Of a stretch of 64,000 nucleotides of DNA, positions 1,066-61,429 are shown piece after piece. Each line of letters opens with the position of its first letter. The stretch's first letter is position 1. This stretch comes from Mytilus galloprovincialis (taxonomy: Eukaryota), in contig NC_134847.1 of NCBI RefSeq assembly GCF_965363235.1, positions 69,910,935 through 69,974,934 of the forward strand, given 5' to 3'. The position numbers and the translations under genes were made by a program. Under the pieces are notes generated by a model. It was not told where the DNA came from. It searched no databases and worked only from the letters and a program-made list of their open reading frames with translations.

Positions 1066-1079
1066 CTGGTACTTTTGAT

Positions 1080-7293: not shown

Positions 7294-8726
7294 GTAAGTA
7301 CACAATTTAAGATAAAGGTATCTTTGATTATCTGAAACATTTGTAAAATTTCTGTTTTGTGCATGATCAAAAAGATTTTTTGTTGTAATGAATTTAGAAA
7401 AGGGAGGGAAAGGTTAGGTGGAATAATTCTTGCCTTGATTTTTTCATACTTAACAAAAGAGTTAATGTCATTTTTTTTTAAGAAACAATGATTATAAAGG
7501 CAATGATGCTATAGTATAAAAACAATACGTTTATCAAAATAATTAAGCGTCTAATGATGGAACGACTAGTAATTTTAATATTTATTGATAAAGTTTTATC
7601 ATTGTCATTTAATGATTATAACTTTTGACATAGTACTGTCTAACCTACAAATACTATGCCATCGGATATAATAAAAAAATACGAAACAATTCGAAAGTAA
7701 AAACCAACGGCATGATTTATTCAAAAACAACAAATAAAGCACAATGTATGTTTGATAGGAAAAAGCAAAAAAAAATAACGCCGTGTCTTTAAAAACATTA
7801 GGACGAAATTCCAATAACGTTGTTGCCTATAGCACTTCGTAAAAATAGCAGCATGCAACATAAAAATAATATGACAAAAAATTCCGAACTCCAAGGAAAA
7901 TTCAAGTCGGAAAGTCGCTTATCAAATGGCAAAATCAAAAGCTCAAACACATTAAAGGAATAGATAACATCTGTCATATTCTTGACTTGGCACATACATT
8001 TTCTTATGTAGAAAATGGTGGATTGAACATGGTTTTCTAGCTAACTTATCCTCTCTTTTGTATGGCAGTCGCTTAAAATTGCAATATATTGACAACAATG
8101 TGTGAACAAAACAAACAGACTTAAATGATAGAAATGTCAAAAACTGAGTAGTCATTCTTGTGTTAAAATTTAATTACTATAAAAACAAACAACTCTGTCA
8201 ATAAAATGGCCAATAGCACATCACTTCAGCCAAAATGGAAGACAAGAGTACAAAAAATGTTCATAGCACAATACAAAAATGACTGGATATTAGTATATGA
8301 ATACCGAGGCATGTCAAAAGAATTTCAGGGAAAATGGACTTAACAGTATAGGCTAAAGATATTCATATACAAGTAAAAGAACACGTCGCAAAACATTGAA
8401 ATTGAACGTTTAACAGTCGAGTACGATCCAGATTTGGCTGAAAATCAAACAAAAAGTATGATCAATGCCGATTTTTACATCTAGTTTGATTAATCTTGAG
8501 AGGAATAATTATGCAAAGTGTCTTCATGTAAATCAAGAAACATGTTCTCCGAAGTCACGTAAGATAGTTTCGGCCCTATTAAAATATTTTCTCAGCTCTT
8601 ATCTTTTACATGATATAGAATCAGATAACATGCCTATTGCCTGCAGCCCATTTATAAAAGGTTTTACTTAGAGCAACAACCAGTGAGAAAAGTATCATAT
8701 AGTGAAGTGTATTTACTCTTTTTCAG

Positions 8727-14443: not shown

Positions 14444-15650
14444 TGACGCTACTGACACATCCGCCAAAACCATCCAACTTACCTCAATATCTAATACTGT
14501 CGGCATAATTACAAGGAACATTGGTACTATCACAGATAATTATTTAACAAACACACAAGGTACAACTACTGTTTCTGAGATTCATGGACCAATATCTGAC
14601 GAAACAACTTACACAGCAGCAACAACCCTGCTAAAGACCACTGCTGATCAAGCTACGGTCTCTCTGATTACTAATGATAAACCGACGGAAACGACGGAAA
14701 CCATAGCAAGCTCGAAAACGCCAACACAAACATCTACATTCATATATGACAATCAAACGATCGGCTTTACAACATATGATACTACGATGACAGACAAAAC
14801 AACTAGTGACCCTACTGACACAACCGCAAAAACCATCTAACTAACCTCGATATCTAATAATGTTGGCTTAACCACTAGGACCATTGGTTCTATCAGCGAG
14901 AAACATGTAACAACCACTAAAGGTACAGCTACTGTTTCTGTGACTCTTGGACCAATATCTGACGAAACAACTTACACAGCAGCAACAACCCTGGTAAAGA
15001 CCACCGCTGGTCAAGCTTCGGTCTCTCCGATTACTAATGATAAACCATCGGAAATCATAGCTAGCTCGGAAACTCAAACAAAACCGTCTACATTCATATA
15101 TGACACTCCAACGATCGGCTTTACAACAGATGATACTACGATGACATACACAACAACTAGCGAAGCTACTGTAAAAGCTGAAAAAACATCCAACTTACCC
15201 CGATATCTAATACTGTTGGCATAACCCCAAGGACCATTGGTACTATCACTGATAATTATTTAACAATAAATCGACGGTAACGACAGAATTAATAGCTAGC
15301 TCGGAAACAGCAACAAAAATGTCTACATTCATAATTGACATTCAGACGATCAGATTTACAACAGATGATACTACGATTACAGACACAACAACTAGCGAAA
15401 CTAGTATAACAGCAGCAAAAACCATCTAACTTATCTCGATATTTAATACTACTGGCATAACCACTAGGACCATTGGTAATATTACCGATACACATTTGAC
15501 AAACACAGAAGGTACAACTACTGTTCCTCAGCCTCACGAACCAACATGTGACGAAACTACTTACACAGCAGCAACAACCCTGCTAAAGACCACCGTTGGT
15601 CATGCTTCGGTCTCTCCGAATACTAATGATAAACCGACCAAAAGACCAAC
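14444..15650 (+). pseudogene. Decayed continuation of the mucin repeat array (about 3.3 more units) with frameshifts and stops.
   Basis: The same 363-bp unit continues. The frame shifts by +1 after an A6 to A7 change at about 14430. An in-repeat TAA (accatcTaactaacc) lies near 14836. ORF 14940..15224 is a residual in-frame piece. Confidence 0.5.
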
Positions 15651-25055: not shown

Positions 25056-25157
25056 CTACTGTTCAAAGAGCATTTTTATTAGTTGCCCAAATTTCATTTC
25101 TTGGATTTAAAACTGTGAATTAAGAAATTATTGTGTGCATTTATATTATTATTGTGA

Positions 25158-26310
25158 CTTTTTATACGACTGCAAAAAATGTTTGAGGTCGTATATTGGT
25201 ATGACGTTGGCACATTGGTTTTCGCACTATCACTTTAGTTTTTGTAAATAGAAATCTATGAAAATTAAACGCAAGGTTTGTGACCACTAAAGGAAGGTTG
25301 GGATTGATTTTGGGAGTTTTGGTCCCAACAGTTTAGGAATTAGGGGCCAAAAAAGGGCCCAAATAAGCATTTTTCTTGGTTTTCGCACAATAACTTTAGT
25401 AAAAGTAAATAGAAATCTATGAAATTTAAACACAAGGTTTATGAACACAAAAGGAAGGTTGGAATTGATTTGGGAGTTTTGGTCTCAACAGTTTAGGAAT
25501 TAGGGGCCAAAAAGGGGCCCAAATAAGCATTTTTCTTGGTTTTGGCACCATAACTTTAGTATGAGTAAATAGAAATCTATGAAATTTAAACACCATAAAA
25601 GGAAGGTTGAGATTGATTTTGGGAGTTTTAGTCCCCACAGTTTAAGAATTAGGGGCCCAAAGGGTCCAAAATTAAACTTAGTTTGATTTCATCAAAAATG
25701 GAATAATTGGGGTTCTTTGATATGCCGAATCTAACTGTGTATGTAGATTCTTAATTTTTGGTCCTGTTTTCAAATTCGTCTACAATAAGGTCCAAGGGTC
25801 CAAAATTAAACTTAGTTTGATTTTAACAAAAATTGAATTCTTGGGGTTCTTTGATATGCTGAATTTAAACATGTACTTAGATTTTTGATTATGGGCCCAG
25901 TTTTCAAGTTGGTCCAAATCGTGGTCCAAAATTAAACTTTGTTTGATATCAACAAAAATTGAAACCTTGGGGTTCTTTGATATGCTGAATCTAAACATGT
26001 ATTTAGATTTTTGATTATAGGCCCAGTTTTCAAGTTGGTTCAAATCGGGGTCCAAAATTAAACTTTGTTTTATTTCAACAAAAATTGAATATATGGGGTT
26101 CTTTGATATATGCTGAATCTAACCATGCATTTAGAATTATGATATTTGGGCCCGGTTATCAAATTGGTCCACATTGAGGTCTAAAGGGTCCAAAATTGAA
26201 CTTTATTTGATTTCATCAAAAATTGAATTCTTTGGGTTCTTTGATATGCTGAATCTAACCATGTAATTAGATTTTGGATATTGGACCATAATAGGTAAAT
26301 GTCCAATTTA
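25158..26310 (+). mobile_element. Satellite-bearing non-autonomous composite element, copy 1. This is the 5' part; its 3' tail resumes at 33647-33756 after the nested Ngaro.
   Basis: Starts ctttttatacgacYgcaaaaa...ggtcgtata (9-bp hairpin) as in copy 2 at 50643. Contains satellite I (units of about 150-171 bp, 25215-25640) and satellite II (units of about 126-138 bp, 25662-26290). Both satellites carry GGGCCC. Confidence 0.6.
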
Positions 26311-27320
26311 TACAAAATTCTCAGAAATGATCCTGAATATGTTTAATTGTCATTTGTTCCATGTTTGCAATGTGTTCTGATTCTTTGTAAATATTTTTTA
26401 GGGTAAATTTATTTCTGTTTGATGTGATGCTGTTCTAATCTTATTTTAATTGTCTTTTGTTTATACTGTATCTTTTCTGTGGTAATCTGTTATGTAATAG
26501 GGAAATGTGTGTTAACACCTGAGCAAACATCCAACCTCATATCTTCTTGCAAATTCTTTGACCTGACAATTAAACCATCCTGATCTAACTTTCGGTCCTA
26601 TATTTTAATTTTGCTAATAAATGTGTCAGTGAACAAAATCCTCAAAGTCACACATAATGAGTTCATATTAATTTCATAGTAATTTAAATAATTTAATTAC
26701 CCCTGATTTCTTTCAGAACACACTGTTTGAACTCATGATATGTAAAATTAAGGATTTAGTGCTCACATTATTATCAACCTAATTTTTCCTGCTATCACCT
26801 ATCTTGTAAATAAACTCCTGGGAAATACTGTGTAGCAATGCCATTGGTATCCATGTTTGAATTAAACATAAATCATAATTTAATTGCAACTTTTATTTTA
26901 TATATATACATCACGATTATAATTTGGCCCTTGGGGAAACTACTCAGCTAAAAAATTTAATTTTTTGCTCCATGCCTAAACCAAGAGCCTAGCTATGTGC
27001 ATACTGAAAAGTAGCAAAGTATAGACCCCTGGCTTGACATCACACCAATCCAATTGGAACGATGGTTCAAAATAAATGCATGAGGCTATCAGGAAGCCTA
27101 TGAGGCTATCATTCCTAGAGGCTATCATGCCTATGAGGCTATGAGGAAGCCTATAATGAGACAATGAGGAAGCCTGTAAGGAGGCTATGAGGAAGCCTAG
27201 TAGTGTTGATGTTGAATTGGTGTTGGAATGAATTTGTATGAAATTTGACAGTTTATCCCCAGAAATTCTTGGGGGATGAGTGAAATTTTTGAAACAACCA
27301 GTGATAAAATTTCATAAATG
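26311..27320 (-). repeat. Ngaro terminal direct repeat, copy at the element 3' terminus. Contains ATGAGGCTATCA/GAGGAAGCCT subrepeats at 27087-27200.
   Basis: Identical, as read, to 27841-28856. Confidence 0.8.
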
Positions 27321-27398
27321 AAATCAATAAACATAATGCTGAGATTGCTTCCCCTGTCATGGCAATATTGAAGGTGAAAGGAGGGGTCGGTGGGAGGC

Positions 27399-27839
27399 AA
27401 GTTTTTAGCTAAAACCTATTAGCACTATTAGCCAAGATTATTCTATAACTGCTTAATCTGCATTTAGATAAATGAATACTCAAGGCAGCATACACAGGTT
27501 TTTAATACACAACTTCTTAATGGGATACTCCTAAGTGGGAGGAGTTAAAACTGCACCCAGATTAATGTATCAAGAAACAAAGGACAAAGGAAGCCAAATG
27601 CCACAAGTGGTCACTAATTAACAAGACATGTATATTTGTATTGGAACTGATGAAATTAGACCTCCTGCTAAGAACATGTGATAAACTTCATATCTAACTG
27701 ATTGACATATGATAATAAATCTGTTTCATCTCAACAGCAAAGAAAATACACATCCTGGGAAAATCCTAAAATAATGACTACTGAGTAATTAAAATCAAAT
27801 TATGTATAAACATACTTATATAACATATAAGTACCTATT
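27399..27839 (-). repeat. Ngaro internal copy of the 0.44-kb repeat, identical to 33203-33646.
   Basis: agtttttagctaaaacctattagcac...gtacctattta is present at both sites. Confidence 0.8.
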
Positions 27840-27840
27840 T

Positions 27841-28856
27841 ATACAAAATTCTCAGAAATGATCCTGAATATGTTTAATTGTCATTTGTTCCATGTTTGCA
27901 ATGTGTTCTGATTCTTTGTAAATATTTTTTAGGGTAAATTTATTTCTGTTTGATGTGATGCTGTTCTAATCTTATTTTAATTGTCTTTTGTTTATACTGT
28001 ATCTTTTCTGTGGTAATCTGTTATGTAATAGGGAAATGTGTGTTAACACCTGAGCAAACATCCAACCTCATATCTTCTTGCAAATTCTTTGACCTGACAA
28101 TTAAACCATCCTGATCTAACTTTCGGTCCTATATTTTAATTTTGCTAATAAATGTGTCAGTGAACAAAATCCTCAAAGTCACACATAATGAGTTCATATT
28201 AATTTCATAGTAATTTAAATAATTTAATTACCCCTGATTTCTTTCAGAACACACTGTTTGAACTCATGATATGTAAAATTAAGGATTTAGTGCTCACATT
28301 ATTATCAACCTAATTTTTCCTGCTATCACCTATCTTGTAAATAAACTCCTGGGAAATACTGTGTAGCAATGCCATTGGTATCCATGTTTGAATTAAACAT
28401 AAATCATAATTTAATTGCAACTTTTATTTTATATATATACATCACGATTATAATTTGGCCCTTGGGGAAACTACTCAGCTAAAAAATTTAATTTTTTGCT
28501 CCATGCCTAAACCAAGAGCCTAGCTATGTGCATACTGAAAAGTAGCAAAGTATAGACCCCTGGCTTGACATCACACCAATCCAATTGGAACGATGGTTCA
28601 AAATAAATGCATGAGGCTATCAGGAAGCCTATGAGGCTATCATTCCTAGAGGCTATCATGCCTATGAGGCTATGAGGAAGCCTATAATGAGACAATGAGG
28701 AAGCCTGTAAGGAGGCTATGAGGAAGCCTAGTAGTGTTGATGTTGAATTGGTGTTGGAATGAATTTGTATGAAATTTGACAGTTTATCCCCAGAAATTCT
28801 TGGGGGATGAGTGAAATTTTTGAAACAACCAGTGATAAAATTTCATAAATGGCCAT
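27841..28856 (-). repeat. Ngaro internal copy of the 1.01-kb repeat.
   Basis: Identical to 26311-27320. Duplicate ORFs 26976..27164 and 28507..28695 give the same peptide. Confidence 0.8.
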
Positions 28857-29079
28857 AACACAGATGGTAACAGCTGAGTGTCCCCAAGGATTTGTGAGGT
28901 TAGGGAGGGGGTACCTTCAATAAAGCCATGAAATAAAAAAAAAATAAAAAAATAATAAAAATAATAAATGTTATCACATAATAATACACAATATCAAAAT
29001 CAATTGTCAAACAAAAACAATATCATCTAGAATCTCTGTAAAAAACATGTGTATGGAATATTTGAAAATGAGCATGCCC

Positions 29080-30093
29080 TTAAATTCTACCTAACCTACT
29101 TTGAGCTGTTTTAATAGATGCTGGCGTTACCCTAATGTATCTGATGTAACTATCTGAAGTCCAGCGCCCTAATGTTTTTATCAAGTGATCTTCTATTTTT
29201 GCCTTACCAGCACTTGTAGCTGCCCCAATTCTAAAACTATGACCATTATAATGACTTGAGTTGAAACCACATATATCCAGTACTTTTTTGATACAAGTGA
29301 TGAAATATTGTCTCTCCAAAGGTTTCTTATCAATGGTTATGAAAAGTGGATCAGTTTGATTAGTAGGAGAAAATTCTTTCCTTATTTGTATATATTCTAA
29401 CAAAATTGTGTAAGGGCAGATAAGCTGACCTAATTTATGTAGCTGTAGATTTATGCCTTTTCTAAAAGGATCTGTTTTTGATTGTTTTAATTTCAAAACT
29501 ACTAAGTCTGAGTGAAATACAACATCTTCAATACATAAATTTATATGTGGATCAAACTGTGAGGCCTTTGACACTGTAAACTCGCCACATCTCAAAAATC
29601 CATAAAATGCGACAATGCATGCAGTTCTTAACATTAAATCAGTAAACTTGGAACAAAAACCTTTTCTCAAACAATTTACAATTTTTTCCAAAATTTCGAA
29701 AGTTATTGGTAATCTTATGTGATTTTTTGTTTTTTGCAGTCTTTTTACAGAATTTAAAACATAATCAAGTCTGATTAAAGGTGTATTATGAGCAGATTGT
29801 AAGGGATCATTTTGATTACCCTGTACATATTTATACCTAATTCCACATAAATATAATTTAATGGTAGAGTATTGTAAACTCAGAACTTTAAAGCAGTGGG
29901 CTATGAAATAAATTAAAATATCCTCAGAAATAGGAGGTAAATTAGAAAATTGAAAACCATTCAATAACATAAAAGTCTCAAATTTTCTGAACCCAGTATC
30001 ATAAACAGTTCTTGTAGTATTAGCAATAGCACTGTTCCAAAGTTCATTCACTGCTTGATTTAGGACCACATTACATCTGAGCTGCTTGGGCAC
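29080..30093 (-). CDS. Ngaro tyrosine recombinase (phage-integrase-type YR), 337 aa.
   Basis: Box I FLRCGEF. Box II GHSFRIGAATSA. LGRWTSDSYIRYIR carries the Tyr nucleophile, so the R-H-R-Y set is present. Overlaps the RT ORF by 34 nt. Confidence 0.85.
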   Translation of the reverse strand: MPKQLRCNVVLNQAVNELWNSAIANTTRTVYDTGFRKFETFMLLNGFQFSNLPPISEDILIYFIAHCFKVLSLQYSTIKLYLCGIRYKYVQGNQNDPLQSAHNTPLIRLDYVLNSVKRLQKTKNHIRLPITFEILEKIVNCLRKGFCSKFTDLMLRTACIVAFYGFLRCGEFTVSKASQFDPHINLCIEDVVFHSDLVVLKLKQSKTDPFRKGINLQLHKLGQLICPYTILLEYIQIRKEFSPTNQTDPLFITIDKKPLERQYFITCIKKVLDICGFNSSHYNGHSFRIGAATSAGKAKIEDHLIKTLGRWTSDSYIRYIRVTPASIKTAQSRLGRI

Positions 30094-31553
30094 TTCATTG
30101 GATGTTGTGCTGCACTGGGAGCTAGTTTGCGGAATCTGTCTATCTGTAAACGAGATAGAGCATCACTTATATCATTCTGATATCCTGGAACATGTTTGGC
30201 ACTAAAATGAAAGTTGTATTTACAAGCACACCATGTAAGTTTCCTCATTAATTTCATTATTTGTAAACACTTTGAACGGCCCTTTTTTACTATAGCCACT
30301 GTAGCTTCATTGTCACACCAGAAAAGAATGCGTTTTGTTGTCCACTGTGAGCCCCACAGTATTGCGGATACTACAATGGGGTATAATTCAAGAAAAGCCA
30401 TTGAAAATGTTTTGTCAGGATAAGCAATGTTTGATGGCCATGATGAATAAAACCATTCTCCCTTGAAATATCCACCAAATCCTTTTGTTGATGAGGCATC
30501 AGTAAAAAGTTCCATATCATAACTTGAGTAAAATTGTCTACTGTAAAACATGTTCACACCATTCCAGCTGCTCAGAAAAAGTAACCAAAATTCTAGGTCA
30601 ACACGGCATTCCTTATCTAATTTAACATAATGATGCAAATCATTGACAGTAGTGGACAGCCCTATGAGGTATGAAACAAAGGATCTACCAGGTAAAATGA
30701 CACGTGAAGCAAAGTTTAAGTGACCCAAAAGCTGCAACAATTCCCTTTTTGTACAAGATTTTTTCCTGCATAATTTTTTGATGAATTCACAAATGCGATC
30801 AACTTTATTAAGAGGTAGTCGAGCTTCCATTTTTTCAGAATCTAGAATAATACCCAAATATTCTAAACATTTTACAGGACCTATTGTCTTATGTTTTGCT
30901 ATAGGAATGTTCAGTTTTTTGAAAATCATCATCATTATAGCCATAGTCCTCTCACCATCAGCATCTGGTGGATCTATGGTTAGGAAATCATCCAATAAAT
31001 GCAAAATGCTATTAACTTTGTAATTGTTTTCTGCAATATGACACAAAGCTTGGGATAAATGGTCAAAAATTTTGGGGCTTGAACGACATCCAAAAGTTAA
31101 ACGGACATAAAAATAATACATTTTTTCCCATTTTATGCAGAAAAGAGGCCACTGACTTGGTACAATTGGACAATTTTTGAACGCGTCGGATATGTCGAAC
31201 TTGCAAAGCCAGGAATTTCTTCCAAATTTCAAAATAACATCAATGGCGTCATCTATTCTAACATAAGACATTGAGCAATCCTGTTTGTCAATAAGATCAT
31301 TAATACTTAGATGTTTATCATCATTATGTGGTGAAGATAAGTCCAATATTAAACGCTTTTTACCAGAATATTTCCCTTCTGCAATACCAATTGGGCTTAC
31401 CCTATAATTTTGAAAAGGGGGATCCTTAAAAGGCCCATACAAGAAACCTTTAAAAACTTCTTTCTCTATCAAATCAGAAACCACATCTGGTTGTGTCCTA
31501 GCAGATAAACTATTCCTACATTCTTTTGTAGGTAAATCTGTTGTAGATACCAT
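30060..31553 (-). CDS. Ngaro reverse transcriptase plus RNase H, 497 aa, with no methyltransferase domain.
   Basis: RT blocks LILDLS, KFDISDAFKNCPI, LTFGCRSSPKIF, HLLDDFL (YxDD equivalent). RNase H FTDASSTKGFGGYF...WCDNEATV. The ORF is too short for a DIRS-type methyltransferase, so Ngaro rather than DIRS. Confidence 0.85.
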   Translation of the reverse strand: MVSTTDLPTKECRNSLSARTQPDVVSDLIEKEVFKGFLYGPFKDPPFQNYRVSPIGIAEGKYSGKKRLILDLSSPHNDDKHLSINDLIDKQDCSMSYVRIDDAIDVILKFGRNSWLCKFDISDAFKNCPIVPSQWPLFCIKWEKMYYFYVRLTFGCRSSPKIFDHLSQALCHIAENNYKVNSILHLLDDFLTIDPPDADGERTMAIMMMIFKKLNIPIAKHKTIGPVKCLEYLGIILDSEKMEARLPLNKVDRICEFIKKLCRKKSCTKRELLQLLGHLNFASRVILPGRSFVSYLIGLSTTVNDLHHYVKLDKECRVDLEFWLLFLSSWNGVNMFYSRQFYSSYDMELFTDASSTKGFGGYFKGEWFYSSWPSNIAYPDKTFSMAFLELYPIVVSAILWGSQWTTKRILFWCDNEATVAIVKKGRSKCLQIMKLMRKLTWCACKYNFHFSAKHVPGYQNDISDALSRLQIDRFRKLAPSAAQHPMKCPSSSDVMWS

Positions 31554-31682
31554 AGTATCAAATCCTTTCTCTAAGCCATTGCATAAATAGTTAACAGATT
31601 TTTTGTCAGGATGAGAAATTAATTCTTTTGCAAGTATAATAACATTAATTGGAGTAGTAGCCAGATATGGGAAATCATGTAG

Positions 31683-33083
31683 TCATTGACCTTGCTTATT
31701 TGTTGTTATTTTCTCAAACTTTTGTGAAGAGTTTACTGTATGTGGCTTAGATTGTACTTCAGTCCTACCTTGAGAGGGGAAAACTTTTTGACAAGATAAT
31801 AGGGTATGACCAGCGACTTTACATCTGCTACAGATATGTGAAAAATGACAAAAACTCCTGGTACAACCCCTACTGGTATTAAAATTATTGCAAACCTCCC
31901 GCCCAGAATGATAAATTTTCTTTCTACCTAACTTATCAGTAGTGTCTACCTGCCTTGATACTTTATCTGGGTAGTCTTGATATGTCATGGAGGTTTGCAT
32001 AGGACAAAAAGCAGTAGTGTGATCAACCAAATTACAAATTTTGCAAACATTTACATTCCCACCAGCAACTATTAATGAAAGAAGATCCCTATCTCTTTTG
32101 CTCCAGTCAACCTTAATCCTTCTCTCCCTTAAAAGAGCTGCTGATTTTGCAGAAAACAATTTATGGTAATCATAAAATCTGTCACCATAAAAATTACTAA
32201 TATCTATAATCTCATCTTCATAAGCATCTAGCTCTGCTCTACGGTCAGGGTAAACTGATGACATGACCCTCTTAAACTTGCCAAATGCCTTAATGAATTC
32301 TTGAATTGTGAGTTTTCTATTCAGACGGGGATCTGGCTTCCCAGAAATATTTAACTCTAACCCATTAGCTGCAACAGAGTGAATTTGGGGAGTTTCATAG
32401 TTTGGGATAAGCAGAGATGCCAAATTAACATCCTTACCGTCAATGATTTGCTTTTGAATAGAAGGAGATATAATGTCCACATTAGAATATTCATCCGAAC
32501 GCACTCCACATGAAACATTTCCAACTTGTGGTCCTGAGATGAAAGATGCATGCTCTTGTGTATTTCCATGTAAAACAGTATTATTTCCTCTGTTAGAAAT
32601 TTCACTCCTATTCCCAATCCCTGCATGGTTGTACCACTGTTGAAGGTTGAATTCGCGATCTCTACCTGTGTCATGAGTACAATTGTCTCTGTAAATTAGC
32701 TGTTTAAAGGTCTCTTGAAGTCCTTCAAAACACTGAGCTATGTTCCTGTCTGTTCCACCATTTGAAACACTGCTTCTGTGTTGATGCACTGATTCTGCTA
32801 AGGTAATTGGAAGAGTGCTCTCTGGTGAGGAATCTGTGTTAATCTCATCACTAATGGTGTCTGTCTGTTGTGTCTCTAAAGATGTTACTCCATCAAAACA
32901 ATTCTCTAAATAAAGTTGTTTTAACACTTGTTTTGACATACCAGAAGGTGTTCTTATTCCCTTTTTGTTAAGTTCTTCTTTTAGTTTGTTTATTGTCCAA
33001 TTAGAAGGGTTATTAGAATCCCATTGGGTCTCATACGGAGAACTCCTAGTTTTCCTTCGAACACCTTTTCCTCTGCCAGACAT
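31683..33083 (-). CDS. Ngaro Gag-like protein, 466 aa, with an N-terminal SAP-like motif and two CCHC zinc knuckles.
   Basis: INKLKEELNKKGIRTPSGMSKQVLKQLYL (SAP-like). CKICNLVDHTTAFC and CSRCKVAGHTLLSC (C-x2-C-x4-H-x4-C). Basic N-terminus. Confidence 0.75.
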   Translation of the reverse strand: MSGRGKGVRRKTRSSPYETQWDSNNPSNWTINKLKEELNKKGIRTPSGMSKQVLKQLYLENCFDGVTSLETQQTDTISDEINTDSSPESTLPITLAESVHQHRSSVSNGGTDRNIAQCFEGLQETFKQLIYRDNCTHDTGRDREFNLQQWYNHAGIGNRSEISNRGNNTVLHGNTQEHASFISGPQVGNVSCGVRSDEYSNVDIISPSIQKQIIDGKDVNLASLLIPNYETPQIHSVAANGLELNISGKPDPRLNRKLTIQEFIKAFGKFKRVMSSVYPDRRAELDAYEDEIIDISNFYGDRFYDYHKLFSAKSAALLRERRIKVDWSKRDRDLLSLIVAGGNVNVCKICNLVDHTTAFCPMQTSMTYQDYPDKVSRQVDTTDKLGRKKIYHSGREVCNNFNTSRGCTRSFCHFSHICSRCKVAGHTLLSCQKVFPSQGRTEVQSKPHTVNSSQKFEKITTNKQGQ

Positions 33084-33202
33084 TTTGTTGTCAGTTAATC
33101 CAAAATAATGTTTATTGTTTCAGGTTATATAGTTTGAATTATATTTAGTTGTTTAAAAACTGTCATATAGCTTTTGTAAAGTAATCCAAACACTGAAAGT
33201 TC

Positions 33203-33646
33203 AAGTTTTTAGCTAAAACCTATTAGCACTATTAGCCAAGATTATTCTATAACTGCTTAATCTGCATTTAGATAAATGAATACTCAAGGCAGCATACACA
33301 GGTTTTTAATACACAACTTCTTAATGGGATACTCCTAAGTGGGAGGAGTTAAAACTGCACCCAGATTAATGTATCAAGAAACAAAGGACAAAGGAAGCCA
33401 AATGCCACAAGTGGTCACTAATTAACAAGACATGTATATTTGTATTGGAACTGATGAAATTAGACCTCCTGCTAAGAACATGTGATAAACTTCATATCTA
33501 ACTGATTGACATATGATAATAAATCTGTTTCATCTCAACAGCAAAGAAAATACACATCCTGGGAAAATCCTAAAATAATGACTACTGAGTAATTAAAATC
33601 AAATTATGTATAAACATACTTATATAACATATAAGTACCTATTTAA
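33203..33646 (-). repeat. Ngaro 5'-terminal copy of the 0.44-kb repeat.
   Basis: Matches 27399-27839. Confidence 0.8.
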
Positions 33647-33756
33647 AAAATTTATAAGTTTTTAAGTTTAAGTTCTTAGACCACATTTATTCTGTGTCAA
33701 CTGTTCAGGGTTCGAACTCTGCGGCCGTATAAAGCTGCACCCTGCAGAGCATCTGG
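33647..33756 (+). mobile_element. 3' tail of composite element copy 1, displaced by the Ngaro insertion. Homologous to 52135-52296.
   Basis: aaatttWtaagtttttaagtttaagttcttagaccacatt...actgttcagggttcgaMctctgcgg...taaagctgcRccctgcagagcatctgg is shared by both copies. Copy 2 has an extra 60 bp. Confidence 0.6.
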
Positions 33757-37694: not shown

Positions 37695-38143
37695 GTATGT
37701 AAACTTTTTATGAACTAGAATACAAACTGGAATAACTTATATAACTTGTACCTTTGATAACCAATTATATACAATGTTATGCAATAAGTATTTGTCACTA
37801 ACGATCTTTACTATATATTTCTAACTATAACAAACAGTATTATGAACGACACAGCTATTTTATATTTTATATCTATTGATGATTTGTCATCAGTTGTCTT
37901 AGTTTTTTTCCTGGAGTGAACATTTAGTTTGATTGAAATAAATGGCAACGTTCCAGACAAAAATGAAATGAGAAAGCGTCATAATAAAAGTATAACCAAA
38001 GTTGTTAGTTCAAACCCTGCTTGTGGCATGTTGCATTAATGGATTTTATTTGACACAGTTTGCAACTTTTACTGTAGAAGGCTTTTGGTTTTCTTTGGGT
38101 ACTCTTGCTGCCTCAACCATTGAAAAATATGCACCATGATAAT

Positions 38144-38357
38144 ACTGTAAATTCAGAAATTATTGTGTGCATTTTATTATTGCTATTTGGTCATTTTAGA
38201 CTTCAATGCGATTTTAATCTTTACGATTTTGCGAAAAATCCTGTTTAATTCATATAAAATATTTCAAAATGTCAGTTTAAATTATTGCGTTTACCACATT
38301 TTTTCGCATTTTTCTCAATATTAAAAACCTTGCAATAATTTCTGAATTTACTGTAGT
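38144..38357. mobile_element. MITE of about 215 bp with TIR CTGTAAATTCAGAAATTATTG / CAATAATTTCTGAATTTACTG. A paralogue lies at 58322-58530, and the same head occurs at 25118-25157.
   Basis: Termini read directly. The internal sequence is shared with 58322-58530 (attattgtgtgcatttWattattg...ttgattcatataa.aaatttcaaaatg). Confidence 0.55.
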
Positions 38358-41929: not shown

Positions 41930-44900
41930 AGATTGCACATTCCTAAAAGACAATACAAAGGATATGGGCTATCCATCCATGACACAAGCACATTCCTAAT
42001 AGACACTACAAAGGATATGGAGTATCCATCCATGACACAAGTACATTCCTAATAGACACTACAAATGATATGGGCTATCCATCCATGACACAAGCACATT
42101 CCTAATAGACAATACAAATGATATGGGCTATCCATCCATGACACAAGCACATTCCTAATAGACACTACAAATGATATGGGCTATCCATCCATGACACAAG
42201 CACATTCCTAATAGACAATACAAATGATATGGGCTATCCATCCATGACACAAGTACATTCCTAATAGACAATACAAATGATATGGAGTATCCATCCATGA
42301 CACAAGCACATTCCTAATAGACACTACAAATGATATGGGCTATCCATCCATGACACAAGCACATTCCTAATAGACACTACAAATGATATGGGCTATCCAT
42401 CCATGACACAAGCACATTCCTAATAGACACTACAAATGATATGGGCTATCCATCCATGACACAAGCACATTCCTAATAGACACTACAAATGATATGGGCT
42501 ATCCATCCATGACACAAGCACATTCCTAATAGACACTACAAATGATATGGGCTATCCATCCATGACACAAGCACATTCCTAATAGACACTACAAATGATA
42601 TGGGCTATCCATCCATGACACAAGCACATTCCTAATAGACAATACAAATGATATGGGCTATCCATCCATGACACAAGCACATTCCTAATAGACACTACAA
42701 ATGATATGGGCTATCCATCCATGACAAAAGCACATTCCTAATAGACACTACAAATGATATGGGCTATCCATCCATGACACAAGCACATTCCTAATAGACA
42801 CTACAAATGATATGGGCTATCCATCCATGACACAAGCACATTCCTAATAGACACTACAAATGATATGGGCTATCCATCCATGACACAAGCACATTCCTAA
42901 TAGACACTACAAATGATATGGGCTATCCATCCATGACACAAGCACATTCCTAATAGACACTACAAATGATATGGGCTATCCATCCATGACAAAAGTACAT
43001 TCCTAATAGACACTACAAATGATATGGAGTATCCATCCATGACACAAGCACATTCCTAATAGACACTACAAATGATATGGGCTATCCATCCATGACACAA
43101 GCACATTCCTAATAGACACTACAAATGATATGGGCTATCCATCCATGACACAAGTACATTCCTAATAGACACTACAAATGATATGGGCTATCCATCCATG
43201 ACACAAGCACATTCCTAATAGACAAAACAAAGGATATGGGCTATCCATCCATAACACAAGCACATTCCTAATAGACACTACAAATGAAGTACATTCCTAA
43301 TAGACAATACAAATGATATGGGCTATCCATCCATGACACAAGCACATTCCTAATAGACAATACAAATGATATGGAGTATCCATCCATGACACAAGCACAT
43401 TCCTAATAGACACTACAAATGATATGGGCTATCCATCCATGACACAAGCACATTCCTAATAGACAATACAAATGATATGGGCTATCCATCCATGACACAA
43501 GTACATTCCTAATAGACAATACGAATGATATGGGGTATCCATCCATGACACAAGCACATTCCTAATAGACACTACAAATGATATGGAGTATCCATCCATG
43601 ACACAAGCACATTCCTAATAGACACTACAAATGATATGGGCTATCCATCCATGACACAAGCACATTCCTAATAGACACTACAAATGATATGGGCTATCCA
43701 TCCATGACACAAGCACATTCCTAATAGACACTACAAATGATATGGGCTATCCATCCATGACAAAAGTACATTCCTAATAGACACTACAAATGATATGGAG
43801 TATCCATCCATGACACAAGCACATTCCTAATAGACACTACAAATGATATGGGCTATCCATCCATGACACAAGCACATTCCTAATAGACACTACAAATGAT
43901 ATGGGCTATCCATCCATGACACAAGTACATTCCTAATAGACACTACAAATGATATGGGCTATCCATCCATGACACAAGCACATTCCTAATAGACAAAACA
44001 AAGGATATGGGCTATCCATCCATAACACAAGCACATTCCTAATAGACACTACAAATGATATGGGCTATCCATCCATGACACAAGCACATTCCTAATAGAC
44101 ACTACAAATGATATGGGCTATCCATCCATGACAAAAGTACATTCCTAATAGACACTACAAATGATATGGAGTATCCATCCATGACACAAGCACATTCCTA
44201 ATAGACAATACAAATGATATGGGCTATCCATCCATGACACAAGCACATTCCTAATAGACACTACAAATGATATGGGCTATCCATCCATGACACAAGCACA
44301 TTCCTAATAGACAATACAAATGATATGGAGTATCCATCCATGACACAAGCACATTCCTAATAGACACTACAAATGATATGGGCTATCCATCCATGACACA
44401 AGTACATTCCTAATAGACAATACAAATGATATGGGCTATCCATCCATGACACAAGCACATTCCTAATAGACACTACAAATGATATGGAGTATCCATCCAT
44501 GACACAAGCACATTCCTAATAGACACTACAAATGATATGGGCTATCCATCCATGACACAAGCACATTCTTATAGACAATACAAATGATATGGGCTATCCA
44601 TCCATGACACAAGTACATTCCTAATAGACAATACGAATGATATGGGGTATCCATCCATGACACAAGCACATTCCTAATAGACACTACAAATGATATGGAG
44701 TATCCATCCATGACACAAGCACATTCCTAATAGACACTACAAATGATATGGGCTATCCATCCATGACACAAGCACATTCCTAATAGACACTACAAATGAT
44801 ATGGGCTATCCATCCATGACACAAGCACATTCCTAATAGACACTACAAATGATATGGGCTATCCATCCATGACACAAGCACATTCCTAATAGACACTACA

Positions 44901-46200
44901 AATGATATGGGCTATCCATCCATGACACAAGCACATTCCTAATAGACACTACAAATGATATGGGCTATCCATCCATGACACAAGCACATTCCTAATAGAC
45001 ACTACAAATGATATGGGCTATCCATCCATGACACAAGTACATTCCTAATAGACAATACAAATGATATGGGCTATCCATCCATGACACAAGCACATTCCTA
45101 ATAGACAATACAAATGATATGGAGTATCCATCCATGACACAAGCACATTCCTAATAGACAATACAAATGATATGGGCTATCCATCCATGACACAAGCACA
45201 TTCCTAATAGACAATACAAATGATATGGGCTATCCATCCATGACACAAGCACATTCCTAATAGACAATACAAATGATATGGGCTATCCATCCATGACACA
45301 AGCACATTCCTAATAGACACTACAAATGATATGGGCTATCCATCCATGACAAAAGTACATTCCTAATAGACACTACAAATGATATGGAGTATCCATCCAT
45401 GACACAAGCACATTCCTAATAGACACTACAAATGATATGGGCTATCCATCCATGACACAAGTACATTCCTAATAGACAATACAAATGATATGGAGTATCC
45501 ATCCATGACACAAGCACATTCCTAATAGACACTACAAATGATATGGAGTATCCATCCATGACACAAGCACATTCCTAATAGACACTACAAATGATATGGA
45601 GTATCCATCCATGACACAAGCACATTCCTAATAGACACTACAAATGATATGGGCTATCCATCCATGACACAAGCACATTCCTAATAGACACTACAAATGA
45701 TATGGGCTATCCATCCATGACACAAGCACATTCCTAATAGACACTACAAATGATATGGGCTATCCATCCATGACACAAGCACATTCCTAATAGACACTAC
45801 AAATGATATGGGCTATCCATCCATGACACAAGCACATTCCTAATAGACAATACAAATGATATGGGCTATCCATCCATGACACAAGCACATTCCTAATAGA
45901 CACTACAAATGATATGGGCTATCCATCCATGACAAAAGTACATTCCTAATAGACACTACAAAGGATATGGAGTATCCATCCATGACAAAAGTACATTCCT
46001 AATAGACACTACAAATGATATGGAGTATCCATCCATGACACAAGCACATTCCTAATAGACAATACAAATGATATGGAGTATCCATCCATGACACAAGCAC
46101 ATTCCTAATAGACACTACAAATGATATGGGCTATCCATCCATGACACAAGCACATTCCTAATAGACAATACAAATGATATGGGCTATCCATCCATGACAC
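41930..46200. repeat. Intronic satellite: about 80 tandem copies of a 53-bp unit (ACAAATGATATGGGCTATCCATCCATGACACAAGCACATTCCTAATAGACACT).
   Basis: The 53-bp period was verified at 42061, 42114 and 42167. Variants segregate (gcac/gtac, cact/caat, gggc/ggag). Lies inside PARP4-like intron 11. Confidence 0.85.
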
Positions 46201-46427
46201 AAAATCAGTAGGTGCACACCAAAAAAGCACAAGAAGCAAACAGTGCATTTATAGTTGTTCTTCTTCTAGGGGTAACAGTTAGGCCTACAATGCTGAGCAA
46301 AGAAACTCCCACCCTTCTGCAATTCCAAGACAACCACCAGCACCGGTCCTAGTAAAGTTTTGTGTACATACCACAGTATATTGTACAATTTAATTATATG
46401 TTACAATTTTTATTTTAATTTATACAG

Positions 46428-48263: not shown

Positions 48264-49294
48264 GTAGGTTAAATAATAGGCCGTTTCAGAATCTAAAGGT
48301 CTATGGGTTACTCAATTGTTTGTACCCAACATTGAAAATAACACCACAGCATTGGTCTAATTTCAATTATTTAGGACATTTTTAACCAATCATGACGCTT
48401 TGGTGTACACTTATGAAAATATTACCCAGAATGCATTAGATTCTTAAACAGCGAATTATATACTTGCTGTTTTGTTTTATTGTACTCATTATTTTGTTGT
48501 TGTCTTGTTGCTATTTTCCCACATCTCCTGTTAGTAATACTACAGGAATAATGTTTTAACAGTATATAGTTGTACCTTTTTAATGTGTATGGTTACATTA
48601 ATGAGTCAACTGTGAGTTAAATTATTATATAAAACATTTGGTGTCATCAAATTCAAATATATTAAAGGATCTTTTTGAACACACAGGTCATGTAAACATT
48701 TACAATACAGTGCACAGATCAATTTGTTAGCCAACTTTACATATATAAATTGAACACCAAATTTCTTAACCCTTTCAACGCTACACAAAAAAAAGAGAAA
48801 AATGGCTGCTGCTGCTGCATTTTTTGTGTGTTCATTCATTAGAACAGTATATTCCTTTTCAGACTGCTGTATCTTTTTTATTATAAGAGATACAGAGAAA
48901 GTTATTGCATGAAAAATGCTCAGGAGAGTATGAACTGTAATGTTGGGCAGTTATTTCAGTAAAATTTTTATCAGGTTACCTGCATTTTCATGTAATTAAC
49001 AGGTAAAAGGTGTAATTTATTACATTTGTGTTGAATTTGGAATAAAAACTACTTTTAGTCTTCATCTATTTTGTTGTTTTATCTGCCATATAATAAAGAA
49101 GACACCAATTGCTCGATTCCGTAGCGTATAGCACCATTCACAACGTATTATGTAATCTTGGCACAAATCAGTGGCTCCGTCCTCAAAATTTTCAGTCAAC
49201 CTCCGTTTTCCGCGAATAGCAGTGGCGGACGGCGTATGTCATCGCGGCATATGCCGTGTAAAGCGTTGAAAGGGTTAATATAGTGAATGTAAAA

Positions 49295-49760
49295 AAGAAG
49301 ATGTGGTATGATTACCAATAAGACAACTGTCCAAAAGAGACCAAAATTATACAGACATTGACAACTATAGGTCACCATACGGCCTTCAACAAAGAGCAAA
49401 GCCCATACCGCATAGTCAGCTATAAAAAGCCCCGATATGTCAATGTAAAACAATTCAAATGAGAAAACTAACGGCCTTATAAAAGTTATTTATATAAAAA
49501 AATGAATGAAAAACAAATATGTAACACATAAACAAATGACAACCACTGAATTACAGGCTCCAAACTTGGGTAAGGCTCATACATAAATAATGTGGCGGGG
49601 TTAAACATGTTAGCGGGATCCCAACCCTCCCCTAACCTGGGACAGTGGTATAACAGAACAACATAAGAACGAACTATAAAAATCTGTTGAGAAAGGCTTA
49701 ACTCATCAGATGGACAAAAATACAAGTGGACGTAGTCCGAGTACTTGTACATCCCGACAA
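49295..49760 (+). mobile_element. SINE-like family, full-length copy, in PARP4-like intron 14.
   Basis: Near-identical to 2886-3340. Confidence 0.55.
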
Positions 49761-50520: not shown

Positions 50521-51107
50521 GTAAGTAACTCTCTTTATGTTGCTTCAAAAAAATTTCTGTGCATGGTTTTATTTTTCAGCTATGGAAAGCTTTCAAATTT
50601 TGACAAATTGAGTTTTTTGAAATGTCTGATATGTTCAAGCTCCTTTTTATACGACCGCAAAAATTGAAAATTTTTTGGTCGTATATTGGTATCACGTTGG
50701 CATCAGCGTCGGCGTCATCAAAGATATTTGGTTTTCGCACTCTAACTTTAGTAAAAGTAAACAGAAATCTATGAAATATAAACCTGACCATAAAAGGAAG
50801 GTTGGGATTGATTTTGGGTGTTTTGGTCCCAACAGTTTAGGAATTAGGGACCAAAAACAGATCCCAAATAAGCATTTTTCTTGGTTTTTGCACAATAACT
50901 TTAGTATAAGTTAATAGAAATCTATGAAATTTTAACACAAGGTTTATGACCACAAAAGGAAGGTTTGGATTGATTTTGGGAGTTTTGGTGACAATGAATT
51001 AGGGGCCAAAAGGGTCCAAAAGTAACTTGTTTGATTTCATCAAAAATGAATTATTGGGGTTCTTTGATATGCCAAATCTAACCGTGTATTCAGATTCTTA
51101 ATTTTTA

Positions 51108-51402
51108 TGCCCCACCTACGATAGTAGAGGGGCATTATGTTTTCTGGTCTGTGCGTCCGTTCGTTCGTCCGTCCATCTGTTCCTTCGTCCGTCTGTCCCT
51201 CTTCAGGTTAAAGTTTTTGGTCAAGGTAGTTTTTGACGAAGTTGAAGTCCAATCGACTTCAAACTTAGTATACATGTTCCCTATGATATGATCTTTTTAA
51301 TTTTAATGCCAAATTAGAGGGTTTACCCCAATTTCACGGTCCACTGAACATAGAAAATGATGGTGCGAGTGGGGCATTCGTGTACTGGGGACACATTCTT
51401 GT
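51108..51402. mobile_element. Small insertion of about 295 bp inside copy 2, with 9-bp inverted termini ATGCCCCAC / GTGGGGCAT. Absent from copy 1.
   Basis: Copy 1 reads ttaatttttggtcctgttttcaaatt at 25751-25776 without it. The 5' hairpin is atgccccacctacgatagtagaggggcat. Confidence 0.45.
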
Positions 51403-51574
51403 TGGTCCTGTTTTCAAATTGGTCTGCATTAAGGCCCAAAGGGTCCAAAATTAAACTAAGCTTGATTTGAACAAAAATTGAGGTTCTTTGATATGCTGAA
51501 TCTGAACATGTACTTAAATTTTAAATTATGGGCCCAGTTTTCAAGTTGGTCCAAACCGAGGTCCAAAATTATTA

Positions 51575-51835
51575 TATTTAGTATCGTGCAATAGCAAGAA
51601 ATTTTCAATTGCACAGTATTCCGCAATAGCAAAAAATCTTCAATTGCACAGTATTGTGCAATAGCAAGAAATTTTCAATTGCACAGTATTGCGCAATAGC
51701 AAGAAATATTCAATTGCACAGTATTGTGCAATAGCAAGAAATATCTAATTGCACAACATTGCGCAATAGCAAGATATTTTCAATTTCATAGTTTTGCGCA
51801 ATAGCAAGAAATATTCAATTGCACAGTATTGTCCC
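51575..51835. repeat. About eight tandem copies of a 33-bp unit AATTGCACAGTATTGYGCAATAGCAAGAAATWTTC. Each unit holds a TTGCACA...TGYGCAA palindrome.
   Basis: Read directly. Present only in copy 2 of the composite element. Confidence 0.6.
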
Positions 51836-52582
51836 GTTTTCAAATTGGTCTACATTAAGGTCCAAAGGGTCAAAAATTAAACTTTGTTTGATTTCAACAA
51901 AAATTGAATATATGGGGTTCTTCAATATGCTGAATCTTACCATGTATTTAGATTTTTAATATTTAGGCCCGGTTATCAAATTGGTCCACATTGAGGTCTA
52001 AAGGGTCTAAAATTGAACATTATTTGATTTCATCAAAAATTGAATTCTTGGGGTTCTATGATATGCTGAATCTAACCATGTATTTAGATTTTGGATATTG
52101 GACCATAATAGGTAAATGTCCAATTTAAAATTTTTAAGTTTTTAAGTTTAAGTTCTTAGACCACATTCATTCTGTGTCAGAAACCTATATTGTGTTAATT
52201 ATTTGATCAAGCTTAAATGTTGTGTCCATACTTGCCCCAACTGTTCAGGGTTCGACCTCTGCGGTCATATAAAGCTGCGCCCTGCAGAGCATCTGGTTAG
52301 CTTGATGGATTAGAAAACCATAAGTATCATAAGATTTACAAATAGCATTCTTCAAATGTTATCTAGACTTTCTTTTTTATCAGCAGATTTGCTTTTTTGA
52401 TTGTGTTTTTGTTAACTTCATCATTTTCAATAGATATTTGAAGACTGCCAAATTTGACTCGTTTGATATTCAAAAGAATATTATGATAATAGCAACAGCA
52501 GTTAACAGTTCAGTTCTATTTTGAAAAAATACAAAATATGAATTGAATGGAATAATAATATAGCTTTATATTGATTAATTAC

Positions 52583-57745: not shown

Positions 57746-58321
57746 GTAAAATTAAATGAATAAGGTAGAATCTGAACTTTAGTTTGGATGTGAATCATAA
57801 GAGACAGTTACTAATTTTACAAAATTTCTTGCAATAAAAACTACAACATTTCAGTACAACACCATTCATTTTTGTTGTAATAATTTTTTATAAAAAGAGG
57901 AGAACATTTTCAGTACTTTTAAAACTGACAAGACTAAGTGTTAGTTGAGACCCCTGCTACCAAAGTTGATATATTTGCTACTGCTCATGATCTATTAGCC
58001 AATCATACAGCATTCAGGAATTAGAGCATTTGGCTTTGAGTCAATAAATGTGTGTGAGTAGGGTTAGATATCATCCTGTACAGATACCTTGTGATCTTTA
58101 TCTTGTTAAAACTCATGCCCAAGATGTCATTCTATTACAAAACAGGGTTCATATTTGTATAGCAGTTAAACCTTTTACATCCTTATTTGCTGAAAATGAA
58201 AGTTCATGTTATAACTTAAACACCAGCTGCAAAATTGCATCTAGTATCCAAGCTCTTTATTTTGAGACATCTCTGTAATTACTGAGTCAGTTTTTGAATT
58301 ACTCTAGGAGGAATTATATAT

Positions 58322-58530
58322 ATATACTGTAAATTCAGAAATTATTGTGTGCATTTATTATTGTGATTTTGTCATTTTAGAATAAAATGCAATTTAATTT
58401 TTGAGATATTTAGAAAATTCCTATTTGATTCATATAATAAATTTCAAAATGCGAGTTTTAATTATTGTGATGATAAACCTGTTGCATTTTCGCAATAATA
58501 AAAACATCCCAAGGATTTCTGAATTTAAGG
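58322..58530. mobile_element. Second copy of the 38144-type MITE, in PARP4-like intron 24.
   Basis: actgtaaattcagaaattattgtgtgcattt...gcaataataaaaacatcccaaggatttctgaatttaagg. Confidence 0.5.
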
Positions 58531-60800: not shown

Positions 60801-61429
60801 ATAATTGACTATTAAAGCTAATACTAAGTTATGTTGGTAAAATATTTTTAGAAATCTGAAAGAATAAATATGTCTAGCTATAAAATGATAATAAAATGTT
60901 TAAGAATATTATGATTTAAAATCAGAATTTGATTTGTGCATTTAAATTATTATTGTTAATTTTCTATAGCAAACAAAAAATGATTATTTTAATTAATATA
61001 ATTTCTGTGTAAATTGTAGAATAATTATTACTCTACAAGTTTTTCATCCTGTCTAGTTTTCCACATTAGTATCTGAAATGATCTGTATGCCAAGCAACAT
61101 ATATGGTAGCTAAAATATATTTCTTTTATACCAGTATGTCATGTTACAGTGAGTTGACTGTTAGTGTTGCTCTCCACCAATTGCAACTCATTCAAAATTT
61201 TGACCAAATTGCAATTTGTTTTATAAAATCAAATTGTTCAACTGGTCAGAAATTTGAACCAACTGCTGTAGAAAACCACAGCCAAGTCATGAAAGTGCAA
61301 GGTGATAAAATAAAACTTACTTACAATCCTATAAGACTTTAATTCCACTTTAATGATGTTGTGACAAAATTAGTTTATCAGTTTGTATAGTTATATTATA
61401 TTCATTTCCATGCTGAAGGGGAACTGTTT

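Follow-up and report, generated by a model that had tools for sequence, protein, structure and literature searches.

How did a retroelement of some 7 kb come to lie within one of two paralogous copies of a satellite-bearing element, and by what kind of joint is it attached to its host? The question is raised by a 64,000-nucleotide stretch of the Mytilus galloprovincialis genome (contig NC_134847.1, positions 69,910,935 to 69,974,934 of the forward strand), referred to here as the window; all positions given below count from its first letter. Copy 1 of the host element, which resembles the non-autonomous HINE elements, is interrupted by an apparent Ngaro-type tyrosine recombinase (YR) retrotransposon, whereas copy 2 is uninterrupted. 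The account that we favour, and that we hold to be likely, is that the right-hand module of the HINE-like host acquired the Ngaro-type element very recently, by YR-mediated exchange at a five-nucleotide core, TAAAT.

We inspected the three stretches named in a preliminary description of the locus, compared the window with itself and aligned the two host copies globally. In the self-comparison, the left flank of the insert (26048-26310) matched 51867-52127 with 93.9% identity over 263 bp (E 2e-110). For the right flank there were two matching blocks, 33647-33699 with 52127-52179 (96.2%, E 2e-19) and 33698-33756 with 52238-52296 (93.2%). In copy 2 the two flank halves of the insert abut, as the preliminary description had stated; the joint, however, lies at 52127/52128 and not 7 bp further on at 52134/52135, and copy 1, whose left half indeed ends at 26310, resumes at 33646 instead of 33647. 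The insert between the halves, given before as about 7.3 kb, measures 7,335 bp (26311-33645). Global alignment of copy 1 without these 7,335 bp to copy 2 showed 96 of 100 positions to be identical on the left side of the joint and 49 of 55 on the right; over the whole host element the two copies are 78% identical. At the joint itself, the insert-free copy 1 reads CCAATTTAAAAAATTTATAAG and copy 2 reads CCAATTTAAAATTTTTAAG, a difference of two extra A residues and one substitution. Because the lengths of the A runs differ, the insert-free joint is exact only to ∼2 bp. Nesting within one copy of the satellite-bearing element is therefore borne out, but at this precision only. Copy 2 serves as an unoccupied reference; it is not the pre-insertion allele that the term pre-insertion control would imply, but a paralog that has diverged from copy 1 by 4–22%.

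The anatomy of the insert can be read directly from the self-comparison. Its ends are exactly the ends of split direct repeats, which are arranged in the sense orientation in the order A1, open reading frames (ORFs), B1, A2, a unique spacer of 77 bp, and B2 (Table 1). The internal repeats lie downstream of the YR ORF, as the Ngaro layout requires. The two ends of the element, A1 and B2, are mutually unrelated, so that the element has no long terminal repeats (LTRs); an LTR retrotransposon was rejected for this reason and because no DDE integrase is present. At insertion, the copies of a split direct repeat should be almost identical (PMC6681497). We found not a single difference across the 1,454 bp of the two repeat pairs, and the insertion must therefore be very young; set against the divergence of the host copies, this identity also indicates that the insertion took place long after the duplication of the host.

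On the plus strand, the left joint reads TGTCCAATTTA/TACAAAATT, the right joint GTACCTATTTA/AAAAATTTATAAG, the internal B1/A2 joint GTACCTATTTA/TACAAAATT and the empty site in copy 2 TGTCCAATTTA/AAATTTTTAAG. The preliminary description had found no duplicated target bases at these junctions. This part of it does not stand: the pentamer ATTTA, TAAAT in the sense of the element, lies at either joint of the insert, and the empty site and the internal B1/A2 joint each contain a single copy (Table 1). At the right joint, the pentamer (33641-33645) makes up the last five nucleotides of the insert. Beyond this core, comparison of the filled site with its one empty paralog revealed no duplicated bases. 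On the strength of that one paralogous site, the insertion appears to have occurred without a synthesized target-site duplication (TSD); a naive test would score the shared core as a TSD of 5 bp. We read the pentamer as a recombination core and not as a TSD only because the internal B1/A2 joint contains it as well and independent insertions in four species show it again. The shared core strengthens rather than weakens the recombinase interpretation, and the earlier proposal that the joints are of the recombinase type, as opposed to the integrase or endonuclease type, is supported.

Table 1. Positions in the window of the insert, its joints and the two copies of the host element.
Feature	Position	Strand	Remarks
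Ngaro-type YR retrotransposon, 7,335 bp	26311..33645	-	Putative; from ORFs, domains and repeats
Split direct repeat A1, 444 bp, element 5′ end	33202..33645	-	Begins TAAAT (33645 down to 33641 in sense)
ORF1, gag-like, 466 aa	31683..33083	-	Two C-x2-C-x4-H-x4-C knuckles and a CCCH-like motif, from translation
ORF2, reverse transcriptase and RNase H, 497 aa	30060..31553	-	34-nt overlap with ORF3
ORF3, tyrosine recombinase, 337 aa	29080..30093	-	Pfam, homologs, invariant residues, profile
Split direct repeat B1, 1,010 bp	27842..28851	-	From self-comparison
ATTTA/TAAAT core, internal B1/A2 joint, single	27837..27841	.	GTA-TAAAT-AGG in sense; same joint in L001 and L002
Split direct repeat A2, 444 bp	27398..27841	-	444/444 identical to A1
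Unique spacer A2/B2, 77 bp	27321..27397	-	Likewise in L001 and L002
Split direct repeat B2, 1,010 bp, element 3′ end	26311..27320	-	1010/1010 identical to B1
ATTTA core, left joint, flank side	26306..26310	.	TAAAT in element sense, after element 3′ end
Unoccupied site, copy 2	52123..52128	.	Single ATTTA (52123-52127), joint 52127/52128
Host copy 1, left part	25158..26310	+	5′ subterminal repeat TTTATACGAC and complementary inverted repeat (hairpin), tandem repeats; ends ...CCAATTTA
Host copy 1, right part	33646..33756	+	3′ subterminal inverted repeat GCCGTATAAA; ends ...GCATCTGG
Host copy 2, uninterrupted paralog	50643..52296	+	5′ subterminal inverted repeat TTTATACGACCGCA and inverted repeat, tandem repeats, 3′ subterminal inverted repeat TGCGGTCATATAAA

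Recurrence of the core was observed at nine further loci of the same family (L001-L009), which we retrieved via homologous proteins from four Mytilus species: M. edulis (L001-L003 and L006), M. galloprovincialis (L004), M. californianus (L005) and M. coruscus (L007-L009). They are 88–99% identical to the element in the window, and all their flanks are unrelated; a sister family shows 81% identity. The main copy of L001, L003, L006 and L009 are rearranged or shortened, and single joints alone were used from them. In the sense orientation, the 5′ pentamer was taken as the one before AGGTAC and the 3′ pentamer as the one after TTTTGTA. Both are TAAAT in the window element, L002 and L005; the 5′/3′ pairs are TAAAT/TAAAC in L008, CAAAT/TAAAT in L007 and TATGT/TAAAC in L004. 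Single pentamers came from L003 (5′ degraded, 3′ TAAAC), the solo A-77-B form of L001 (5′ CAAAT, 3′ truncated), L006 (5′ TTAAT, 3′ absent) and the inverted fragment L009 (5′ TTACT, 3′ rearranged). All seven readable 3′ flanks therefore start with TAAAY (TAAAT in four, TAAAC in three); the nine readable 5′ pentamers are TAAAT (four), CAAAT (two), TTAAT, TATGT and TTACT. Three copies, namely the window element, L001 and L002, have an internal joint, and all of them read TAAAT there. The background frequency per site is 0.35–0.40% for TAAAT and 0.18–0.30% for TAAAC, and with seven of seven 3′ flanks reading TAAAY against so low a background, the adjoining pentamer is no random duplication but is common to the joined ends and their targets. 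Outside the pentamer, no consistent similarity between target and circle junction was found at the joints of the window element and L001-L009. Nor was there any sign of a preference for the present host, the other copies, L001-L009, lying in unrelated sequence. We also scanned metagenomes for extra junctions with a 19-nt motif from the B end; the 11 loci recovered were discarded as chance matches, none of them being homologous to the element.

Taken literally, the preliminary description would have the YR insert the element with no sequence relation between its ends and the target, the ATTTA at both joints being a coincidence. We regard this as unlikely. Coincidences of this kind do occur: the genome is AT-rich (67% A+T), a joint ambiguity of at least 5 nt arises at a random site of the window with a probability of 0.013 (that is, at ∼1.3% of random sites), and L004 matches poorly. 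Chance would nevertheless have to account for TAAAY at the start of seven out of seven independent 3′ flanks, where at most ∼0.7% is expected per site, as well as for a pentamer placed exactly at the internal B1/A2 joint. Furthermore, the published models for DIRS1 and Crypton elements, discussed below, predict a shared core of just this kind.

It is distinctly improbable that copy 2 was emptied secondarily, by precise YR excision or gene conversion, or that the Ngaro-bearing host arrived as a composite through segmental duplication or conversion. The host copies not only differ at 4–22% of positions but also contain different internal repeats and are set apart by a 58-bp indel, whereas the Ngaro repeats show zero differences; the simplest account is an old duplication of the host followed by insertion into copy 1 only. 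It is true that conservative YR recombination is reversible in principle, and recombined derivatives of the family exist (the A-ORFs-B and solo A-77-B forms described below). Both alternatives leave the evidence from the joints unchanged.

We give very little credence to an integrase-type insertion of an LTR-like retroelement, with ATTTA as a genuine 5-bp TSD produced by staggered cleavage and repair. Formally, a 5-nt direct repeat that flanks an insert and has a single counterpart in the empty site does qualify as a TSD, and this size is typical for LTR elements. However, the sole recombinase of the insert is the YR, with no ORF or domain for a DDE integrase, and its repeats are split (A...B A B) and are not LTRs. 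The same pentamer is found at unrelated loci and forms part of the element's own internal joint, and an integrase TSD on a TAAAT target would have doubled the pentamer of the 5′ joint to TAAAT-TAAAT-AGG, contrary to what is observed. Finally, mussel genomes are repeat-rich and L001, L003, L006 and L009 look rearranged or collapsed, but an assembly artefact in which a Ngaro copy was mis-joined into the host element is hardly credible, with both joints exactly at the canonical termini, the core as in other copies, and flanks that rejoin within 2 bp in the paralog, which is unexpected for a chimeric join.

For a YR-mediated exchange at the TAAAT core, we propose the following mechanism, which is the one already established for elements of the DIRS order, to which Ngaro belongs. 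The reverse-transcribed element would be closed into a circle with the junction ...TTTTGTA-TAAAT-AGGTAC..., the same as that seen at B1/A2; according to the replication model for split-repeat elements, the internal B1/A2 joint would represent a built-in copy of this circle junction. The tyrosine recombinase of the element would then exchange the core of the circle with a matching or near-matching TAAAY in the target, in a conservative and reciprocal manner. No DNA synthesis would take place at the joints and no true TSD would arise; one core would be kept per joint, like attL and attR after attP x attB recombination. In the paired joints, the base that departs from TAAAT is on the outer (target) side, at position 1 of the 5′ joint of L007 and at position 5 of the 3′ joint of L008. 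Such outer-side variation is what a reciprocal exchange inside the core would predict, and judging from the two variant joints (CAAAT/TAAAT and TAAAT/TAAAC, respectively), the effective point of exchange would lie towards the 3′ edge of the core. The true pre-insertion allele of copy 1 would be expected to read ...GTCCAATTTA(A)nTTTATAAG..., with a single ATTTA. In this scheme the circle, the role of the enzyme and the position of strand exchange are deduced from the joints.

Several points weigh against this account. Neither the circular intermediate nor the activity of the recombinase has been observed, and the pre-insertion sequence of copy 1 is deduced from the paralog and not seen. The unoccupied site is a single one, belongs to a paralog, and differs by 2 nt and one substitution at the very joint. 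L004, with TATGT at its 5′ and TAAAC at its 3′ end, can be reconciled with neither a perfect core nor a simple heteroduplex and would need a TATGC target; the 5′ joints of L006 (TTAAT) and L009 (TTACT) cannot be paired with a readable 3′ joint. With few copies, and these closely related, conservation adds little. Moreover, the Pfam match of ORF3 to Phage_integrase (E 1e-4) reaches 22.6 bits, compared with a curated cut-off of 27.1.

An imperfect inverted repeat of 13 nt, AATTTTGTATAAA and TTTATACATAATT, straddles the B1/A2 joint (27798-27810 and 27838-27850, 92% complementary, 27-nt spacer), and its spacer contains a perfect 9-nt palindrome, TACTTATAT-GTT-ATATAAGTA. The left arm of the repeat arises only through the joining of the B end to the A start, as also at joined B2/A1 ends, and its inner edge coincides with the exchange point proposed above. 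It is tempting, though doubtful at this stage, to regard TAAAT as the crossover core and to place the exchange at the 3′ edge of the pentamer, which is the inner edge of the inverted repeat. The inverted repeat and the palindrome may represent a recombinase-binding architecture or may be due to chance in AT-rich DNA; by a rough estimate, the chance of such an inverted repeat in an AT-rich stretch is ∼0.04–0.1. Its conservation is not evidence, as the copies are too similar.

The predicted proteins of the insert are those of a YR retrotransposon. For ORF1, Pfam yielded just a weak zf-CCCH match (E 0.05), and its gag knuckles went undetected in that search. ORF2 matched RVT_1 above the curated cut-off (E 3.6e-9), and a profile of its homologs matched retroviral reverse transcriptases (RTs). 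The RNase H part of ORF2 was not detected by Pfam. However, the AlphaFold model of ORF2 (predicted local distance difference test score, pLDDT, of 80.5) aligns over ∼480–496 columns with the RT/RNase H proteins of cauliflower mosaic virus (CaMV), Moloney murine leukaemia virus (MMLV) and Ty3, with E values of 1e-14 to 1e-16. The C-terminal part contains the invariant residues D352, E389, D414 and D464, which we read as TDAS...E...CDN...D...LSR. ORF2 is thus predicted to carry RNase H downstream of the RT, at the level of fold and motif only. In ORF3, residues R168, K206, H285-x-x-R288, W311 and Y316/Y319 are invariant across 19 homologs with 42–65% identity. PF00589 is annotated on many homologs, which are named 'Tyr recombinase domain-containing', and a profile built from the 19 homologs matched XerD (E 1e-4). 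Searches of the PDB with single sequences of the YR and RT ORFs were uninformative; the matches were obtained with the homolog profiles. The best protein matches were from M. edulis (99%), M. californianus (96%), M. galloprovincialis (94%) and M. coruscus (87–92%).

Except for a 105-aa ORF nested in ORF1, the ORF list of the insert holds no further ORF of at least 100 aa, and the Pfam scan of the insert ORFs gave no methyltransferase match at E ≤ 0.01 and no match to a DDE integrase. The 497 aa of ORF2 are filled by RT and RNase H. Lack of the methyltransferase domain sets Ngaro apart from DIRS1-like and PAT-like elements. By its ORFs, domains and split repeats, the insert appears to conform to the structural definition of Ngaro (PMC4157794, PMC8547959; also summarized in PMC13465315), in agreement with the preliminary description, and we classify it as a putative, apparently intact Ngaro-type YR retrotransposon. 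It shares with Ngaro elements the ORF order gag-like, RT/RNase H, YR; the lack of a methyltransferase and an integrase; the arrangement A1-[ORFs]-B1A2B2, in which the internal repeats follow the YR; and the existence of solo 'AB' derivatives, here in L001, as described in the form of isolated AB repeats for Cafeteria Ngaros (PMC8547959). It differs in its 77-bp unique spacer between A2 and B2, in the lack of a hydrolase ORF, and in its documented 5-nt core, TAAAT, which is common to the target. We found no equivalent statement of a target-shared core for Ngaro in a literature search whose scope did not extend to the original description of these elements, and the feature may already have been described. 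The original description of Ngaro retrotransposons is reportedly that of Goodwin & Poulter 2004.

The principle of a shared core is already present in the literature. According to the DIRS1 model, a 3-nt sequence at the circle junction recombines with an identical genomic sequence and comes to flank the element on both sides, without a TSD (PMC3266345, PMC7192593). The mechanism proposed for the Mytilus element follows the same logic. However, DIRS1-like elements have inverted terminal repeats and an internal complementary region, a methyltransferase domain and a 3-nt core (NTT), whereas the Mytilus element has split direct repeats, no methyltransferase and a 5-nt core. Cryptons, which are likewise mobilized by a YR, have terminal direct repeats of 4–6 bp that are read as recombination substrates or target microhomology and not as TSDs (PMC3212892, PMC13465315). 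Unlike the Mytilus element, they contain neither RT nor gag nor long repeats and are thought to move by DNA excision and reintegration. The joints are also comparable to those of the phage lambda. Its integration, attP x attB, is a conservative site-specific recombination at a common core, present once in each partner and once in each resulting joint. In contrast to the lambda system, target use by the Mytilus Ngaro appears loose (TAAAY, with matches at four of five positions tolerated), arm sites or host factors are not known, and the substrate would be a reverse-transcribed circle.

The 5-nt core is therefore a modest new detail, by which the 3-nt circle-junction model of DIRS1 would be extended to a Ngaro element; together, the nine related copies and the window element point to a family that joins its target at a 5-nt core (TAAAY). 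At this locus a very young Ngaro copy, clean and apparently intact, is accompanied by an unoccupied-site reference. Its practical value is modest and no concept is changed, but annotators should be aware that such a core will be scored wrongly, as a TSD of 5 bp or as 'no TSD'. The specificity of eukaryotic retrotransposon tyrosine recombinases is experimentally untested (PMC7192593), and we nominate the element and its site as candidates for the biochemistry of these enzymes. Should the doubtful reading of TAAAT as the crossover core, with the exchange at its 3′ edge next to the 13-nt inverted repeat, prove both correct and unpublished, an att-like site of a Ngaro element would have been defined at the sequence level for the first time, and the intact copy with its identical repeats would then be a ready substrate for testing such a recombinase.

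Other arrangements were seen among the family copies. The A-ORFs-B form, without A2-77 bp-B2, is found in L004, L005, L007, L008 and L009, and a solo A-77 bp-B form at 18414-19934 of L001. These forms look like recombination products of identical split repeats, the counterpart of solo LTRs; alternatively, they could reflect assembly collapse. A truncated Ngaro segment of L001 (element positions 8-6524) has an identical sequence of 18 nt, AGTTTCAAATTAATTTAT, at either end (7970-7988 and 14379-14396) and represents a rearrangement or duplication and not a normal insertion joint. In L007, the 5′ flank and the start of repeat A occur twice, 1.2 kb apart (7523 and 8765), with an identical CAAAT joint; the insertion joint has thus been copied as part of a local duplication.

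By its architecture, the host appears to be a non-autonomous carrier of tandem repeats of the HINE-like (Helentron) type. Non-autonomous HINE/Helentron elements with satellite-like repeats are known from bivalves, including Cg_HINE of the oyster, pearl, CvE, MgE and DTC84 (PMC7492417). As in these elements, the left module of the host consists of a subterminal repeat with an adjacent complementary inverted repeat, the centre of a short array of satellite-like repeats of 126–160 bp, and the right module has a subterminal inverted repeat, with no terminal inverted repeats at the very ends. We liken the host to MgE by this architecture and not by sequence identity. It differs from HINE elements in that no microsatellite was seen in the left module; a putative 3′ palindrome is not supported by folding statistics.

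Homology between the host copies begins at 25158 and 50643, respectively, with TTTTTATACGAC. The element starts within a run of T (C/TTTTTATACGAC) and ends ...CTGG; in both copies seen, the last nucleotides are GCATCTGG, and the flanks differ. The 5′ hairpin, TATACGAC(C/T)GCA ... GGTCGTATA, has a folding z-score of -6.4 in copy 1 and -5.3 in copy 2. The 3′ subterminal repeat is complementary to the 5′ one over 14 nt with one mismatch in copy 2 (TTTATACGACCGCA and TGCGGTCATATAAA) and over 10 nt with one mismatch in copy 1. The two halves of the putative 3′ palindrome, CTCTGCGG...CCTGCAGAG, are able to pair, but their folding does not exceed that of shuffled sequence (z-scores of -1.0 and +0.2). 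The tandem repeats of copy 1 have units of 160 bp (2.9 copies, 25215-25661) and 126 bp (4.7 copies, 25660-26279), and those of copy 2 units of 35 bp (7.2 copies, 51580-51831) and 136 bp (1.9 copies, 51836-52099). The Ngaro element lies in the right module, 31 bp past the last satellite unit. The right module of copy 2 contains 58 bp (52180-52237) that are absent from copy 1, located between ...TTCTGTGTCA and AACTGTTCAGGG. The sequence just upstream of host copy 1 (25108-25166) belongs to another dispersed repeat, with further copies at 38139-38350, 58320-58527 and 60924-60968; host copy 1 therefore seems to be itself inserted in an older repeat.

Three further features of the window were recorded. 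On the plus strand, an ORF of 1,913 aa (8702-14443) runs through a tandem repeat of 363 bp, or 121 codons, whose array (9463-15640) has ∼9 or more units of 72–87% identity; the translation is a Thr/Ser-rich, mucin-like repeat, and the ORF probably represents a coding exon that is large and repetitive. A satellite with a 53-bp unit forms an array of 4.3 kb at 41935-46202, with ∼80 units of ∼96% identity and the unit sequence GCACATTCCTAATAGACACTACAAATGATATGGGCTATCCATCCATGACACAA. Finally, two copies of a 460-bp dispersed repeat, 89% identical and in the same orientation, are located at 2877-3336 and 49283-49746.

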